This document shows positions 42,601-63,600 of a stretch of DNA of 64,000 bases, piece after piece. Position 1 is the first letter of the stretch, and each line of letters opens with the position of its first letter. This DNA is from Acidobacteriota bacterium (GTDB lineage: Bacteria > Acidobacteriota > UBA4820 > DSQY01): positions 1-64,000 of the forward strand of contig JBMFSH010000014.1 in assembly GCA_049967655.1 (NCBI GenBank), written 5' to 3'. Position numbers: made by a program.

Positions 42601-45600
42601 GATGCGGCGAGCCGTGCTGGCGGAGTCCCTGGCGGGCGATACGGCGGTGGGCCACGCGGTGGCCTGGGCCATGATCGAAGAGGCCCTGGGAGCGATCCTG
42701 GTGCCTCCGCGGTCGCAGGCTCTCCGGGCGGTGGCCCTCGAGCTCGAACGCCTGGCTAACCATACGGGCGACCTGGGAGCCCTGGCGGGGGACGTGGGCT
42801 TTCTGCCTTCGGCCTCCTATTTGGGGGGGCTGCGGGGCGACCTCCTGAACCTCACCCAGCGCCTGTGCGGCAGCCGTATGGGCCGGGGCTTCGTGGTTCC
42901 GGGCGGTGTGCGCTTCGATGCCCCGGCCGCCTTGGCCGAGGAGGTGGCCGGGAGCCTGTCCCGGACCTGGGGAAGCATCGAGGAGGCCGCGGCGCTTCTC
43001 TTTGACGCCTCGCCGGTTCAGGAGCGCTTTCAGGGGACCGGCGCCGTCGGCCGCGAGGTGGCCGAGGCCCTCGGGCTCGTGGGCGTGGCAGGCAGGGCGA
43101 GCGGGTGCGACCGCGATGCTCGGCGGGATCACCCGGCGGGATTCTACCGCTTCGCGCAGATCCCCCCCCAGACGCTTGCTTCCGGCGACGTCTACGCCCG
43201 CGCCGTGGTCAGGTTCCTGGAGATGAGGCAGTCCTTCGAGTTCCTGGAGGGGCACCTTGGGGCCCTCCCCCAGGGGGCGGTCGGCGTCCCCGCCCAGAAG
43301 GCGCGGTCCGGCTGCGTAGCCGCGGCCCTGGTGGAGGGCTGGCGCGGCGAGATCGCCCACCTCGCCGTGACGGGCGCCTCGGGCGAAATGTCGGCCTACG
43401 AGGCCGTGGATCCCTCCGTTCACAACTGGATGGGCCTCGCGATGGCCCTTCGGGGCCAGGCCATTTCCGATTTTCCGCTCTGCAACAAGAGCTTCAATCT
43501 CTCCTACGCGGGGCACGATCAATGATCAGGACGGTGAAGGCACGTTGGCGCCTGGGCCGTCGGACTCGGCCCTTTCCGCCTGAGGAGAACCCTCTGCCGG
43601 ATCGCTTTCGCGGTCTGCCCGCGCTGGACCCCTCTCGCTGCGAGCCGGGGTGCTCGTCCTGCGCCGAGGCTTGTCCCACCGGAGCGCTGACCCTGGAAGG
43701 TTTGCCGCGGGTCGATCTCGGCCGGTGCCTCTTCTGCCCGCAGTGCGCCCAGGCATGTCCTTCGGGAGCCGTTCGGTTTACCCGGGACTATGCCCTGGCC
43801 GCCTCGACGCGGGACAGCCTCGTGGTCTGCGGGGGGGCGCCCCCAGCGGTCGAAGTCCTGGGCCTCCGGCTGCGCCGTCTCCTCGGCCGCTCGCTCAAGT
43901 TGAGGCAGGTCAGCGCCGGAGGGTGCGGCGGATGCGAGGCCGAGCTGAACGCCACCTCCAACGTGGATTACGATCTCGGGCGCTTCGGCGTCCAGTTCGT
44001 GGCCTCCCCGCGACACGCCGACGGGATGGTCGTCACCGGCCCCGTCACCAGGAACATGGAGGCGGCGCTCCGGCAGACCTACGCCGCCATCCCCGAGCCG
44101 AAGCTCGTGATCCTCGTGGGGGCCTGTGCCATATCCGGCGGGGCCTTCGAGGGGAGCCCCGCGGTGGCCGGCATGCCCGAGGAGATCCCCGTGGATCTCT
44201 TCATCCCGGGCTGCCCGCCGCACCCCTTCACCATCCTGGACGGCCTCCTGCGCCTGCTCGGATCCCGGAAGGCCTGAGCCGGCGGGCGCCGAGCGGTGCC
44301 CCCCGCCCGCCCCTTCCCTTCGGGCGAGGGCGTGGTAGCCTTGAGCGAGAAAGGAGGCCCCATGGCCACCGTCACGCTCCACACGAACCACGGCGACATC
44401 GCGTTGAAACTCTACGAAGACAAGGCCCCCAAGGCCTGCGAGAACTTCGCGGGCCTGGCCAAGAGCGGCCGATACGACGGCGTCATCTTTCACCGCGTCA
44501 TCGACGGCTTCATGATCCAGGGGGGCGACCCCACCGGCACGGGCCGCGGCGGCAAATCCATCTGGGGGAAGAACTTCGAGGACGAGGTCCGCAACGGCCT
44601 GGCCTTCACCAAGAAGGGCATCCTCGCCATGGCCAACGCGGGGCCGAACACCAACGGCAGCCAGTTCTTCATCACGCTGGCCCCCACCACCTGGCTCAAC
44701 GACAAGCACACCATCTTCGGCGAAGTGGGAGCCGGGATGGAGGTGGTGGACGCCATCGCCAAGTGCGCCAAGGGCCCCGGCGACCGCCCCCTGAAGGACG
44801 TGGTCATCGAGCGCTGCAGCGTCTCACCCTGATGACAGAGGAGACGGGAGGATGCCGGGCGGTCAAAGCCGGGATCGAGGGGCGGCGGTCCGGTCCACGG
44901 CCTTGACCGAACAGGCTGGAAAATCATAAAATTAGCCTTGTTGAACCCCCATCCAGGGGGATGGGAGGCCGCCATGGCGGAGGAGAAAAAGCCGAAGATC
45001 TCCCTCCGCATCGCCCGCTCCTGGGAGGAGGCGGAGCGCCTCGACGACGAGTGGTGGGAGAAGTTCTCTCCCTCGGAGCGCGCCGCCATGGTCTGGAGCT
45101 TGACAAGGGAAGTCTATGCCGCCGCAGGAAGAAGAATTCAACCGCGACTTTCGCGATCTGTTTGCCGCCTTCAAGGCTGAGGGGGCTCGCCGCCTCACCA
45201 TCGGCGGGTACGCCTTCGGGTTTCACGCCAAGCCGAGAACATCCAGGAACATTGATGCGTGGGTGGACCCCACGGAGGAAAACGCCCGCCGAGTCTCGAC
45301 CGCCCTCCGCGCGGTGTTGGGGAGAAGGCAAGCGCGGGCTGCGAAGCGATTCAACCCAAGAAAGAAAGGAAAGCCATGAGCCACTACACCATCGTATCCA
45401 TGCCCGGGGACGGCATCGGAAAGGTCGTCCTCCCCGAGGCGATCCAGATCCTGAAGAAGGTGGGATTTTCGGCCGACTACGTCCACGCCGACATAGGCTG
45501 GGACTTCTGGTGCCGCGAGGGCAACGCTCTGCCGGACCGCACCGTGAAGCTCCTGGAGCAGCACAAGCTCGGCCTCTTCGGGGCTATCACGAGCAAGCCC

Positions 45601-60600: not shown

Positions 60601-63600
60601 CTTCTGACCACGGCGCCTTCTGGGGAACGCAAGGCCCTGCGGTCCCGCTGGCGCTGCCCGTCTCCAGTGCCGCCGAGGTGCCCGAAGCCCTTCTCAAGCG
60701 GCTCGGAGGCTTTCCCTTCTGGCGCGGAGAGCGTCCCCTCGAGGAGGCCCTCGCCCCAACCTACCGCGCCGCCGCCCAGCGCGGCCTCGCCCTCCTCGCA
60801 GGAGAGAATCCCTTCACCGAGGGTACCGAAGGGAGCAACGGGCCCTGTGCCATGACGGGGCATGGTAATCTGAAGGGGAACGAAGGGAACGACGCGGAGG
60901 TCCGAGCCTTCGCAAGGTCCATCCAGCGCCGGGGACCCAGAGGAGGCCGCCGGTGAACGGGAGCGCTGGTTTTTTTCGACCGCCTCCAACGTTTGCCTGC
61001 CCACGCTTTCAGCTCAACCTAGCCGATCTGGACTTCCGTATGTGCCGCTTGGCAAAGAGTTTTTCTCCGCGTCTCTATGGTTCAATTAGGGGTTGAACGA
61101 TGGCTAAGGTGGAATTGAAGAAGAACGCGCTGGGGCGGCTGGTGCCGGCGGCGGTGAACGGAAGGAAGCAGGTGCCCTACCGGGGGGTGGACGGCTACGT
61201 GGCCAAGGGGCGCAAGGCCGCGCCGCCCATCGCGAGCGCGGCCAACTTCCCCGGCGACGGGGACAAGCGGGTCGGCTCGCTGGCCGAGGCGCTGGAGCTG
61301 TGCGGCCTTTCGGACGGCATGACCCTCTCCACGCACCACCACTTCCGCAACGGCGACCGGGTGGCGAACCTCCTCTTCGACACGGCGGCGAAGATGGGCA
61401 AGGAGGACCTCATGTGGTTCCCCTCCGCCTCCTTCCCCTGCCACGAACCCATCATCCAGCACATGGAGAAGGGCGTGGTCCACCACATCGAGGGCTCCAT
61501 GAACGGCCCCCTGGGGGACTACTGCACCGACGGAAAAATGCGGGGGCTCGGCGTCCTGCGCTCCCACGGCGGACGCTGGCAGGCCATCCAGGACGGCGAG
61601 GTGCACGTGGACATCGCCGTCATCGCGGCCCCCTGCGCCGATCCCTTCGGCAACGCCAACGGCGTCAACGGCCCCGCGGCCTGCGGGTCCTTGAACTTCG
61701 CGCTGGCCGACTCGCTCTACGCCGACAAAGTCATCGTGGTCACCGACCACCTGGTCCCCTTCCCGGCCATCCCCTGGCAGATCCAGGGCAACCACGTGGA
61801 CGCCGTAGTGGTGGTGGACAAGGTGGGCGACCCCTCCCAGATCGTCTCGGGCACCACGCAGATCACCAAGAGCCCCGACCGGCTTCTCCTCGCGGAGCTG
61901 GTGGCGCGCTTCGTGCGCGACGCCGGGATCCTGCGCGACGGCTTCTCCTTCCAGGCGGGGGCGGGGGGGACGGCGCTGGCCTTCGCCATCTACCTCAAAG
62001 AGATGATGAAGCGGGCGGGGGTGAAGGCGCGCTTCGTCCGCGGCGGCTCCACCAAGTACCTGGTGGAGATGCTCAACGAGGGGCTGTGCGACTACATCCT
62101 GGACGGCCAGACCTTCGACCTGGACGCCGTTCAAAGCATGCGCGACAACCCTCGCCACGTGGCCACCAGCCCCTTCACGAGCTACAACTACCACGGCAAG
62201 GGTTTCTTCGGCACCTTCGTGGACGCCGTGGTCCTCGGAGCCACGGAGGTGGACGTCCACTTCAACGCCAACGTGGTCACCCACTCCGACGGGCGCCTGC
62301 TCCACGGCATCGGCGGCTGGCAGAACTGCCTCTTCGCGGGCTGCACCATCCTCGCCGTGCCCGCCGTCCGCGACCGCATCCCCGTCATCGTGGACGAGGT
62401 CACCACACTCACCGGCCCCGGCGAGCTCATCGACGTGGTCGTCACCGAGCGCGGCATCGCCATCAACCCGCGCCGCCTCGACCTGTTGGAGGCCGTGAAG
62501 GGCAAAGGCTTGCCCATCCGCGATATCCGCGACATCCAGCGGGAGGTGGACCGGATGTGCGGGGGCAAACCCAGGCCGCCGCGGCGAGGCCGGGAGGCGG
62601 TGGCCGTGGTAAAGTGGGTGGACGGAACGGTCATGGACAGCGTCTGGAAGGTGGTTCGATAGCGCCCCATCCAAGGAGGCGGCCATGCCCAGCAAGAAGA
62701 AATCCGACCGGCCCCGGCCCCCCCGCCAGGAGGATGCCCCGGCGCGCCGATTCCCGCGGGTCCCCTCCAGGAATTCCGTCGTTGTCCGCAAGCTGGGCGC
62801 CGGCGAGGAGGGCGGGCTCACGACGACGGAGGTCGTGGGTCTGGGGGGCTGCAGCTTCCTTCACGCCGAGCCGCTGGAGGCGGGCGAAACCCTCTACCTG
62901 TCCATCCTCATCGGCGTCGAATTGGCCGAGGCCCGGGTGAGGGTGGTCTACAGCAAACCCCGCGAGGAGGGCGGCTTCGAGATCGGCGTGGAATTCACCG
63001 AGGTGCCCCAGAGGGACCTGGCCCTCATTCGGGGCGTGGTCGGCTCCGGCGGGGAGGGATTCCGCTGATGGGGGCCCCCGGAGACCCCCCTGTGGGAGGA
63101 ACAACGGCCGAACCGGCCAAGGGATCGCCGGGAGGCTCTTCGCCGGCGCCGCCCTCCGGATTGAGCGGCGAGGAGGCCGCCAGGCGCCTCGCTCAATACG
63201 GCCCCAACTCGGTGGTGGAGGAGAAGCCCCATCCCCTCCTGGCCTTCCTGAGCAAGTTCTGGGCTCCCGTGCCGTGGATGCTGGAAGCCACGGTGGTGCT
63301 GGAGCTCGTGTTGGGCAAGGTCCCCGAGGCGGTCGTCATCGGGGCCCTGCTCCTCTTCAACGCCCTCCTCAGCCTGGTTCAGGAGAGTCGAGCCCAAAGC
63401 GCCCTCGCGGTGCTGCGCCAGCACCTCACCGTGCAGACCCGGGTGCTGAGGGACGGGGCGTGGAAGCCCGTCGCGGCGGCCGATCTGGTGCCGGGCGACG
63501 TGATCCACCTGCGAATGGGCGACCTGGTGCCCGCCGACGTGCTTTTGGGGGAGGGCCAGATCGAAATGGACCAGTCGGCGCTCACGGGGGAGTCCGCCCC

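Follow-up and report, generated by a model that had tools for sequence, protein, structure and literature searches.

Gene content and layout of the locus

The window, the 64,000-nucleotide stretch of an Acidobacteriota contig that we analyzed, carries genes for a CitD-CitE fusion (citDE), a CitF-type acyl transferase, two LeuCD-type hydratases (classes A and B), a dehydrogenase and an HD-domain protein (Table 1). All of the genes named in an earlier note on this DNA were found, intact and on the plus strand. In the window, about 3.9 kb with opposite-strand genes separates the dehydrogenase from the other operon genes; at locus L014, the dehydrogenase ends about 130 bases ahead of the HD start. 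The papain-family peptidase had no full-length match in the fetched loci. As previously noted, a SNF2/SWIM pair interrupts the operon, with both genes lying between citDE and citF. The duplicated citF start that this insertion left has an ATG at 56709, and its frame closes after 31 codons. Among the fetched loci, only same-genus L004 also has a SNF2 gene, and in 61 of the 66 loci with CitF, citF comes no more than 450 bases after citDE. The arms of the palindromic elements had 72 matches genome-wide, 11 of them on this contig. The operon gene set is common to many sediment and soil bacteria, and our counts across 80 loci (CitF 66, LeuCD-type 46, dehydrogenase 30, HD 26 and PrpD-like 18) are near those given earlier.

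TABLE 1 Features of the locus, in window positions
Feature	Position	Strand	Basis or remark
Dehydrogenase (homoisocitrate-type, beta-decarboxylating), 393 aa	45376..46557	+	PF00180
Papain-family peptidase with Ig domain	46700..48994	-	PF00112, PF05345; unrelated insertion
HD-domain metalloprotein, 190 aa	50462..51034	+	PF01966
Class A, fused LeuCD-type hydratase	51224..53062	+	Swivel motif FHNRHL, three Fe-S cysteines, own clade
Class B large subunit, LeuC-type	53247..54506	+	TIGR01343 over cut-off
Class B small subunit, LeuD-type	54678..55169	+	Motif FPGRYTY; TIGR02087 over cut-off
CitD-CitE fusion, 403 aa	55325..56536	+	Domain matches, alignment; Arg15 codon 55367-55369
Duplicate of citF ribosome site and first codons, 84 nt, 90% identical	56674..56757	+	Scar of SNF2/SWIM insertion
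SNF2 helicase, inserted	56798..59920	+	Not part of system
SWIM zinc-finger gene, inserted	59928..60956	+	Not part of system
CitF-type acyl transferase, 520 aa	61100..62662	+	PF04223; PDB matches 2HJ0, 1XR4
Five intergenic palindromic elements, ~140-160 nt	51045-51200, 53072-53224, 54505-54659, 55167-55305, 56535-56691		Arms matched elsewhere in the genome

The CitD-derived domain and the lyase pair

The earlier note held that the ACP serine motif RSD was kept in the CitD domain. Our alignments contradict this: in three MAFFT modes, Arg15 of the motif, not its serine, lies opposite canonical CitD Ser14, and both NCBIfam CitD models place protein residue 15 at profile position 14. Ser14, which we take to be the attachment residue, is the sole serine in the E. 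coli CitD motif, given that position 15 is Gly in that protein. The motif reads RSD in 76 of the 80 loci, KSD in 2 and QSD in 1, with one truncated, and RSD was present in 120/120 homologues among the matches listed.

The reported absence of citG, citX and citC was borne out and reaches beyond the order. None of 69 carrier genomes had CitX, and none of 69 had CitC (TIGR00124); CitG was absent from the own genome, which is 99% complete, and occurred in 1 of 50 other carrier genomes as an unrelated-looking exception. For CitG and CitX, the E. coli positive control was matched. A PF08218 match in the own genome was rejected as CitC, as it covers 99 residues inside a 160-aa nucleotidyltransferase-like gene. 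The CitD domain very probably carries no prosthetic group, and free acetyl-CoA is the probable co-substrate of the lyase. The case for this is stronger than the earlier note held, since even the serine that would bear the group is substituted. Modification of the invariant Ser16 by some other route is conceivable in principle.

Structure prediction docked the CitD domain on CitF with a score of 0.72, compared to 0.00 for the best of three controls; the docking mark is reached by 116 of 157 solved pairs versus 2 of 215 mismatched pairs. The runs had at least 92% of contacts in common, with a partner pLDDT of at least 86. In the predicted complex, CitD-CitE residues 15 and 16 contact CitF residue 425, which is Asp where canonical CitF has Gly, Ala or Ser (Asp in 54 and Asn in 6 of 60 proteins, versus Gly/Ala/Ser in 6 canonical ones). 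Because of this predicted docking, the domain reads as a scaffold that tethers CitE to CitF, and CitC, CitG and CitX would be dispensable because such a tether would need no prosthetic group. The predicted docking may stem from similarity to the MdcA-MdcC contact solved for malonate decarboxylase, in which a carrier of the same family (PF06857) is docked on a family II transferase with its attachment loop facing the transferase (PMC5534430). Unlike the domain here, MdcC has the serine and the prosthetic group and requires MdcB and MdcG.

CitE and CitF are 39-46% identical to citrate lyase. Homologues of CitD, CitE and CitF are all present, yet all three equivalog scores fall under cut-off (CitF, 478.8 bits against 501.45 for TIGR01584), and CitF has about 50 clade-specific changes. 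CitE retains the metal and catalytic residues, and the CitD-CitE model (pLDDT 93.6) has the CitE fold. Residue 125 of CitE is Lys or Arg in 80/80 sequences. Its IHP motif occurs in five free-CoA lyases and also in one canonical CitE (Gluconobacter). Malyl-CoA lyase, CLYBL, citramalyl-CoA lyase and RipC share this fold and motif and use free CoA thioesters, but they stand alone, whereas CitE here is fused to a domain derived from CitD and still has CitF as its partner. Compared with the citCDEFXG system of citrate (pro-3S)-lyase in E. coli and K. pneumoniae, the CitD, CitE and CitF parts stand in the same order, and the citrate lyase logic of transferase, then lyase (PMC3832036) is shared by our reading of the operon. 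In contrast to that system, CitD is fused to CitE with Arg, Lys or Gln at Ser14, the helper genes are missing bar the one CitG exception, and the linked genes encode hydratases and a dehydrogenase rather than a citrate carrier and oxaloacetate decarboxylase.

Dehydrogenase and hydratase families

The best PDB matches of the dehydrogenase were Thermus homoisocitrate dehydrogenases. Its substrate helix, YFSPIVAMR (residues 94-102), has the same SPIV sequence as the S. pombe homoisocitrate dehydrogenase, and SPIV was present in 28/28 readable linked and 15/15 unlinked orthologues. Asn115 is the isocitrate-binding residue (PMC3521221); this position is Ile here, and none of the 43 readable orthologues has the Asn. 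The loop HGSAPKY (308-314) matches the NADP signature (29/29 linked and 14/14 unlinked readable orthologues), and Lys-Tyr replaces the Asp-Ile of the NAD-type loop (APDI) of the Thermus enzyme in 43/43. We count this loop in favor of the reverse, reductive direction, although NADP use leaves the reaction direction unfixed. No NCBIfam model was passed, the best being AksF models (262 and 254 bits against cut-offs of 540 and 500).

Class A forms its own clade in the tree, and class B was sister to the Lys4-type class C in a quick tree (SH-aLRT 93). Classes B and C never share a locus, nor do class A and PrpD-like genes (0/80); the pairings were A+B in 17 loci, C+PrpD in 15 and A+C in 1, with class C assigned by best match in 16. 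In genome G070, class A coexists with an unlinked gene of the PrpD-like kind, which shares 50-54% identity with the operon type. All three class C proteins tested exceeded the homoaconitase cut-off of TIGR00139 (889, 733 and 756 bits against 529.9). The A protein in the window did not pass it, nor did the B subunits, which, being encoded by a split gene, were scored apart (large subunit, 303 bits; small subunit, 90 bits). The class B small subunit shares the PG[KR]YTY swivel motif with most class C homoaconitases. Both PrpD-like proteins tested scored 88-89 bits against PrpD cut-offs of 575 and 950. We rejected leucine biosynthesis (LeuBCD): TIGR00169, TIGR02083 and TIGR02084 were under cut-off, and no synthase was among the recurring neighbours. 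Fungal and Thermus homoaconitases catalyze the second step alone and need a partner (PMC3556520). We propose that class A acts at the homoaconitate/homocitrate step and class B at the homoisocitrate/homoaconitate step.

A proposed exit for 2-oxoadipate and its alternatives

From these families, residue changes and co-occurrences, we infer that the substrate is likely homocitrate and that, if so, the direction is quite probably catabolic; on balance, we favor the operon as the upper alpha-aminoadipate pathway in reverse, an exit for lysine-derived 2-oxoadipate. The NADP-type dehydrogenase would carboxylate 2-oxoadipate to homoisocitrate, which hydratase B, or in other lineages the Lys4-type class C, would convert to cis-homoaconitate. 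Hydratase A (PrpD-like in other lineages) would then hydrate the other carbon, yielding probably (S)-homocitrate, the form accepted by a CitE-type lyase; we give that stereochemistry about an even chance. CitF would exchange free acetyl-CoA for homocitrate with release of acetate, and CitE would split homocitryl-CoA into 2-oxoglutarate and acetyl-CoA, the latter being reused. The net reaction would be 2-oxoadipate + CO2 + NADPH -> 2-oxoglutarate + acetate + NADP+. The earlier proposal of a 2-oxoacid-to-tricarboxylate-to-acetate route on free CoA thioesters is thus supported, with breakdown of 2-oxoadipate as the favored direction.

In fungi and Thermus, the upper alpha-aminoadipate pathway consists of homocitrate synthase, aconitase plus Lys4/LysF homoaconitase, and Lys12. 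The operon resembles it in its Lys4-type homoaconitase or split sister, SPIV-type dehydrogenase and two-enzyme isomerization. It differs in having a reversible lyase pair in place of homocitrate synthase, an NADP-type rather than NAD-type loop, no tie to LysW/LysX, and a class A or PrpD-like first step where the pathway uses aconitase. In the 2-methylcitrate cycle (PrpD plus aconitase, or AcnD/PrpF; PMC5690661), PrpD-family or aconitase-family enzymes likewise fill one dehydration slot ahead of a second hydratase. However, the PrpD-like proteins here lie far under PrpD cut-offs, PrpB, PrpC and PrpF are not among the recurring neighbours, and a dehydrogenase takes the place of the cycle's lyase.

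Lysine genes flank several of the operons. L058 has lysine 6-aminotransferase (LAT) and an aminoadipate-aminotransferase-type gene on opposite sides, and L049 and L080 have an over-cut-off piperideine-6-carboxylate dehydrogenase (Pcd) 3' of citF. These flanks, with L050 and L067 below, count as roughly three independent cases among the 80 loci, given that L049, L050 and L080 are kin. At least one lysine-catabolic marker was present in 35 of 43 carriers, with none found by these queries in 8; such markers also occur in non-carriers (G008, G024, G025, G026 and G028). The 23 own-order genomes have no LAT and no over-cut-off Pcd, and 21 have a lysine-dehydrogenase-like gene and 21 a sub-cut-off aldehyde dehydrogenase.

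Run biosynthetically, CitE and CitF would form a reversible homocitrate synthase acting on 2-oxoglutarate and acetate, pulled by oxidative decarboxylation, with 2-oxoadipate or 2-aminoadipate going to lysine or another product. The module parallels the fungal biosynthetic enzymes, its parts are retained even when scattered over the genome, and the aminoadipate-aminotransferase-type gene that overlaps the dehydrogenase start in L050 is reversible. LysA and LysX are both missing in 18 of 23 own-order genomes (LysX occurs in 5, and in the own genome it lies on another contig), which leaves room for this role. We nevertheless consider it unlikely: with LysX and LysA as the markers, saccharopine-route reductases lying outside the set, LysX was over cut-off in 1 and LysA in 24 of 43 dehydrogenase-bearing carriers, the flanking Pcd and LAT are catabolic, and the own genome already has a LysW cluster elsewhere, with a homocitrate-synthase-like gene plus another LeuB/C/D-like set. 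A forward but catabolic elongation, in which 2-oxoglutarate and acetate would yield 2-oxoadipate, glutaryl-CoA, crotonyl-CoA and two acetyl-CoA in a cyclic glutamate oxidation, is highly improbable. The glutaryl-CoA-dehydrogenase-like gene that suggests it, and that offers an alternative exit, lies directly after the L067 operon, following PrpD, and occurs in the own genome, all 19 own-family genomes and 19 of 43 carriers. It was not found with this query in the other 24 carriers or in 4/4 sister-family genomes, is present in non-carriers too, and owes its label to similarity, having passed no equivalog cut-off.

Citrate as substrate would make the operon a second, reductive isocitrate-citrate branch, a fermentation of glutamate or 2-oxoglutarate with oxaloacetate and acetate as products. 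The proximity of CitE and CitF to citrate lyase fits this, as do the isocitrate-dehydrogenase-like NADP loop, the side activity of Aspergillus LysF (7.5 U/mg on homoisocitrate, 1.88 on isocitrate and 0.99 on citrate) and L081, where histidine ammonia-lyase and phosphate acetyltransferase flank a group of citDE, citF and class A. We find it quite unlikely against the missing isocitrate Asn and the Lys4-type homoaconitase in one slot; one ordinary aconitase would be enough, and the own genome has citrate synthase, canonical isocitrate dehydrogenase and two aconitases elsewhere, which argues against taking the cluster for the ordinary citrate branch. If the homoaconitase and homoisocitrate signatures were ancestry only, the substrate could be another alkyl-malate or tricarboxylate, such as a longer homologue or a methylated citrate. 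Class A has no characterized member, and the low PrpD scores, the CitF changes and three genomes with citDE-citF near transporters or aldehyde dehydrogenases but no dehydrogenase would all allow this. 2-Oxoadipate is indicated instead by two independent signatures in the enzymes and by flanking genes of four kinds, and with neither PrpB nor PrpC recurring nearby, such a substrate seems very unlikely.

If true, the reverse alpha-aminoadipate reading would represent an undescribed way of breaking down lysine; our literature search found no description of such a route. We see evenly balanced prospects for a widespread, CO2-consuming lysine breakdown in anaerobic peptide degraders, in which reverse aminoadipate enzymes would use NADPH and (S)-homocitrate with a lyase on a cofactor-free scaffold (Ser to Arg, and Gly to Asp in CitF). 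Among bacterial proteins, the nearest relatives of fungal Lys4 and Lys12 may also be encoded in these operons. The HD protein, in which conserved residues were seen, is a core member of the system, being present in 44 of 48 further carriers versus 0 of 8 non-carrier Acidobacteriota; tentatively, it might be a metal-dependent hydrolase with a repair function, acting for instance on lactones of homocitrate or homoisocitrate.

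Genomic setting and distribution

The genome that supplies the window (contig C14) is 3.1 Mb in size and 99% complete, and the nearest related loci carry the label Acidobacteriota. All genes that the earlier note had named in the cluster are present, with Pfam and NCBIfam in agreement for each, and the SNF2/SWIM interruption it described was confirmed, both genes sitting between citDE (the CitD-CitE fusion) and citF. The cluster is broken at two places by local insertions. The dehydrogenase and HD genes are separated by opposite-strand genes, one of which encodes a papain-family peptidase, and the SNF2/SWIM pair is preceded by an 84-nt copy of the citF start that is 90% identical. 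Given that citF lies less than 450 bases after citDE in 61/66 related loci, we consider the insertions to be local accidents. We do not count SNF2, SWIM or the peptidase among the genes of the system.

Coordinates of features in the window, elsewhere in the same genome (G000) and in related loci (L numbers)
Feature	Position	Strand	Remark
Papain-family peptidase	46700-48994	-	Roughly a dozen proteins encoded in the genome share its C-terminal Ig-like part
184-aa ORF	49433-49987	-	Low-GC stretch; no Pfam match, no match among fetched loci
SNF2 and SWIM pair with duplicated citF start	56674-60956		Same pair noted in same-genus L004
Palindromic elements	five in 51045-56691; another at 24006-24155		
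Hydrogenase-4-like membrane complex genes	36453-44277		Directly upstream
Cyclophilin	~44359-44832		
LysW-type cluster and second LeuB/C/D-like set	L119 (G000:C8:62230-68136), L118 (G000:C44:695-4771)		
Aldehyde dehydrogenase	G000:C2:61154-62665		
Aldehyde dehydrogenase of the same family	L138:2210-3790		
Class A hydratase, citDE and citF	L081:6472-14948		Flanked by histidine ammonia-lyase and phosphate acetyltransferase

Intergenic palindromic elements of ~140-160 nt lie between most of the operon genes; their arms are conserved, with 72 matches across the genome, whereas their middles vary. The hydrogenase-4-like genes upstream, followed by a cyclophilin gene, had no operon link among the recurring neighbours. 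Promoter and terminator scans gave chance level only. Clusters that recur on the minus strand, along with several on the plus strand, had no Pfam match and were taken as shadow frames. A conserved protein of ~90 aa, also without a Pfam match, directly follows citF in L035, L041, L047, L054 and L072.

Of the 31 relatives, 22 contain a match to the fusion (in one of them a weak CitE-only match), as do at least 507 stretches of the species collection, of which the best 80 make up our locus counts: CitF in 66, LeuCD-type hydratases in 46, the dehydrogenase in 30, the HD protein in 26 and PrpD-like proteins in 18. The lineages include Acidobacteriota, Ignavibacteria, Phycisphaerae, KSB1, Eisenbacteria and others, groups that are frequent in sediments, peat and digesters. 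Since many loci are short contigs, whole genomes were searched; this covered 48 further carrier genomes, from a set of 50 that stands for 50 of the 80 loci. The dehydrogenase (E <1e-60) was found in 43/48 of these and the HD protein in 44/48, in a sample made up mostly of incomplete MAGs, with related genomes that do not count as independent cases. Neither gene was found in eight Acidobacteriota without the fusion (G008, G023-G029). The parts of the system are frequently unlinked in the genome yet retained together. In L017, L021 and L033, whose genomes lack the dehydrogenase, citDE-citF occur by themselves, next to genes for a transporter, an aldehyde dehydrogenase or shikimate-type proteins, and the lyase has possibly moved to another substrate there.

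The HD protein is a true member of the system and keeps the conserved His and Asp residues. Its sequence retrieved no solved relative from the PDB and only generic HD clusters from the Atlas; in the three records examined out of 106, distant homologues from haloarchaea and Sinorhizobium lie in catabolic contexts of different kinds. A role as acyl-carrier phosphodiesterase was set aside, given that there is no group to remove and that the HD gene is often distant from the lyase.

The CitD domain, CitF and CitE

The six canonical CitD sequences that served as reference all read E-S-[S/G]-D, and their Ser14 is presumably the residue to which the prosthetic group is attached. The earlier note held that this serine is kept in the R-S-D motif of the fused domain (Arg15/Ser16), a claim that has to be withdrawn: in three alignment modes the Arg occupies the Ser14 column and the Ser falls opposite position 15, where E. 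coli CitD has Gly, and both NCBIfam CitD models give the same register. The motif is RSD in 76 of the 80 loci (KSD in 2, QSD in 1, truncated in 1) and in 120/120 homologues among the matches listed. CitX and CitC were each found in 0/69 genomes and CitG in 1/50, its single match adjoining a RimK-like gene apart from the lyase. Judged from sequence, the carrier has lost its attachment serine. A protein with an Ignavibacterium album name has the motif too, and direct tests may therefore be feasible in a cultured species.

Complex prediction supports binding of the CitD domain to CitF, with a score of 0.72 versus 0.00 for the best control; 92% or more of the contacts are shared and the partner pLDDT is 86 or higher. 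The docking mark is reached by 116/157 solved pairs and 2/215 mismatched pairs. The predicted docking may echo the solved MdcA-MdcC contact (PMC5534430). In the model, CitD residues 15-16 are in contact with position 425 of CitF, where 54/60 sequences have Asp and 6/60 Asn, compared with Gly, Ala or Ser in six canonical CitF. Asn occurs in both non-Arg carriers with a linked CitF and in four Arg carriers. We infer that a salt bridge would take the place of the attachment site. If the reading of the system as a whole is right, a carrier protein would have been retained as a scaffold after cofactor loss. Searching the PDB by sequence gave no solved relative of CitD. The CitD domain modelled from its sequence alone reached a pLDDT of 44.6, and the CitE barrel took up the matches in fold searches with the whole CitD-CitE model.

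In CitE, the catalytic residues are retained and Lys/Arg125 is gained. The enzyme also contains the IHP motif typical of free-CoA lyases, although this motif occurs in one canonical CitE as well. In vitro, the separated subunits of citrate lyase can work with CoA esters. CitE-like enzymes acting on free CoA esters are known (PMC3832036).

Hydratases, dehydrogenase and probable substrate

In a quick tree of 30 rows, the hydratases form three clades, namely, class A (fused LeuCD-type), class B (split LeuC/LeuD) and class C (Lys4-type homoaconitase). Classes B and C are sisters with a common swivel motif, PG[KR]YTY, and class C passes the fungal homoaconitase model (3/3 tested). The 80 loci hold A+B in 17, C+PrpD in 15, A+C in 1, A only in 8, B only in 5 and PrpD only in 3, and no locus combines A with PrpD or B with C; there are therefore two slots, each with two alternative fillers. 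A class A orthologue was absent from five PrpD-type genomes. Three of five class A genomes lacked the PrpD family, one had a methylcitrate-cycle PrpD, and G070 had an operon-like PrpD elsewhere, so the two are not strictly exclusive. The homoaconitases of fungi and Thermus depend on a partner, since they perform no step but that between homoaconitate and homoisocitrate (PMC3556520); LysF, however, shows some turnover of citrate and isocitrate.

The top PDB matches of the dehydrogenase are homoisocitrate dehydrogenases. Its helix YFSPIVAMR resembles the S. pombe YSSPIVALR and not the SLNVA type of isocitrate dehydrogenases, in which Asn115 binds isocitrate (PMC3521221). SPIV is kept in 28/28 readable linked orthologues (30 examined) and 15/15 unlinked ones. 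These features suggest that the substrate is probably homocitrate. Genes for citrate synthase, two further aconitases and an isocitrate dehydrogenase of canonical type lie elsewhere in the genome; an ordinary TCA branch, leucine biosynthesis and the methylcitrate cycle were rejected as readings.

In the proposed route, 2-oxoadipate, CO2 and NADPH would give homoisocitrate, which class B or C would convert to cis-homoaconitate and class A or the PrpD-like protein to homocitrate. CitF would then exchange acetyl-CoA for homocitrate with release of acetate, and CitE would give back acetyl-CoA plus 2-oxoglutarate, the amino acceptor for lysine transaminases. Provided that this CitE shares the stereochemistry of its family, the intermediate would be (S)-homocitrate. 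This would explain the need for a special hydratase: ordinary aconitases act on the oxoacid-derived arm, whereas a syn elimination has been proposed for the PrpD step (PMC5690661). Class A, which has the aconitase fold, is a candidate for the homocitrate-forming step.

The system would combine citrate-lyase-like cleavage with the aminoadipate pathway in reverse, but it does not qualify as a canonical citrate lyase. In the literature searched, a library thin on subscription papers, we found no paper on a homocitrate lyase, none on anaerobic lysine breakdown via 2-oxoadipate and homocitrate, and no match describing this gene system. If true, this would be the first natural homocitrate lyase, class A and PrpD-like proteins would be candidate homocitrate hydratases, lysine breakdown would use CO2 and NADPH and bypass the glutaryl-CoA oxidation step, and a two-gene lyase free of CitC, CitG and CitX would be useful for pathway engineering. 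The labels citrate lyase, LeuCD and isocitrate dehydrogenase on these genes would then mislead reverse-TCA and leucine predictions. In class C loci (L024, L039, L056, L076 and others), fungal-homoaconitase-equivalog proteins adjoin a dehydrogenase with a fungal Lys12-type helix, a pairing of possible relevance to how the fungal pathway arose.

Direction and lysine context

The cofactor loop of the dehydrogenase reads HGSAPKY in 29/29 readable linked and 14/14 unlinked copies, and Lys-Tyr in this loop marks NADP use (PMC3521221). The biosynthetic homoisocitrate dehydrogenase of Thermus has Asp-Ile at the loop, whereas the operon enzyme has Lys-Tyr. Carboxylation would be favoured where NADPH is in large excess over NADP. 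To judge from values for the analogous isocitrate chemistry, the overall reaction would lie near equilibrium, with cleavage to two products as the pull.

Of the 43 carriers with the dehydrogenase, 1 has LysX and 24 have LysA above the respective cut-off, indicating that most carriers need no such route for lysine synthesis. However, 18/23 genomes of the operon's own order lack both LysA and LysX, which counts against the lysine-breakdown reading. The genome studied here has a LysW-type cluster with a homocitrate-synthase-like gene, separate from the operon, and LysX is patchy in the order (5/23). It also has a second LeuB/C/D-like set with an aminotransferase, the dehydrogenase of which is shared with G009, a genome without LysX.

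Rare neighbours point to lysine breakdown. The operon is flanked by lysine 6-aminotransferase (LAT) and an aminoadipate-aminotransferase-type gene in L058, piperideine-6-carboxylate dehydrogenase (Pcd) follows citF over the cut-off in L049 and L080, an aminoadipate-aminotransferase-type gene overlaps the dehydrogenase start in L050, and a glutaryl-CoA-dehydrogenase-like gene follows PrpD in L067. Genome-wide, the 43 carriers include 22 with LAT (19 over the cut-off), 23 with Pcd and 14 with a lysine-dehydrogenase-like gene (E <1e-100); at least one of the three is present in 35 and none in 8. However, their lack in these 8 carriers and the presence of such markers in non-carriers count against the lysine-breakdown reading. 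KamA was under the cut-off in the operon's own genome. The lysine-dehydrogenase candidate of the order has as its best PDB match Pyrococcus PH1688, which we take to have lysine dehydrogenase activity. An aldehyde dehydrogenase scoring ~390 bits on the Pcd model, below its cut-off, occurs in 21/23 genomes of the order; a relative, 57% identical, lies near LAT in G075, and the family is a candidate for an alternative aminoadipate semialdehyde dehydrogenase.
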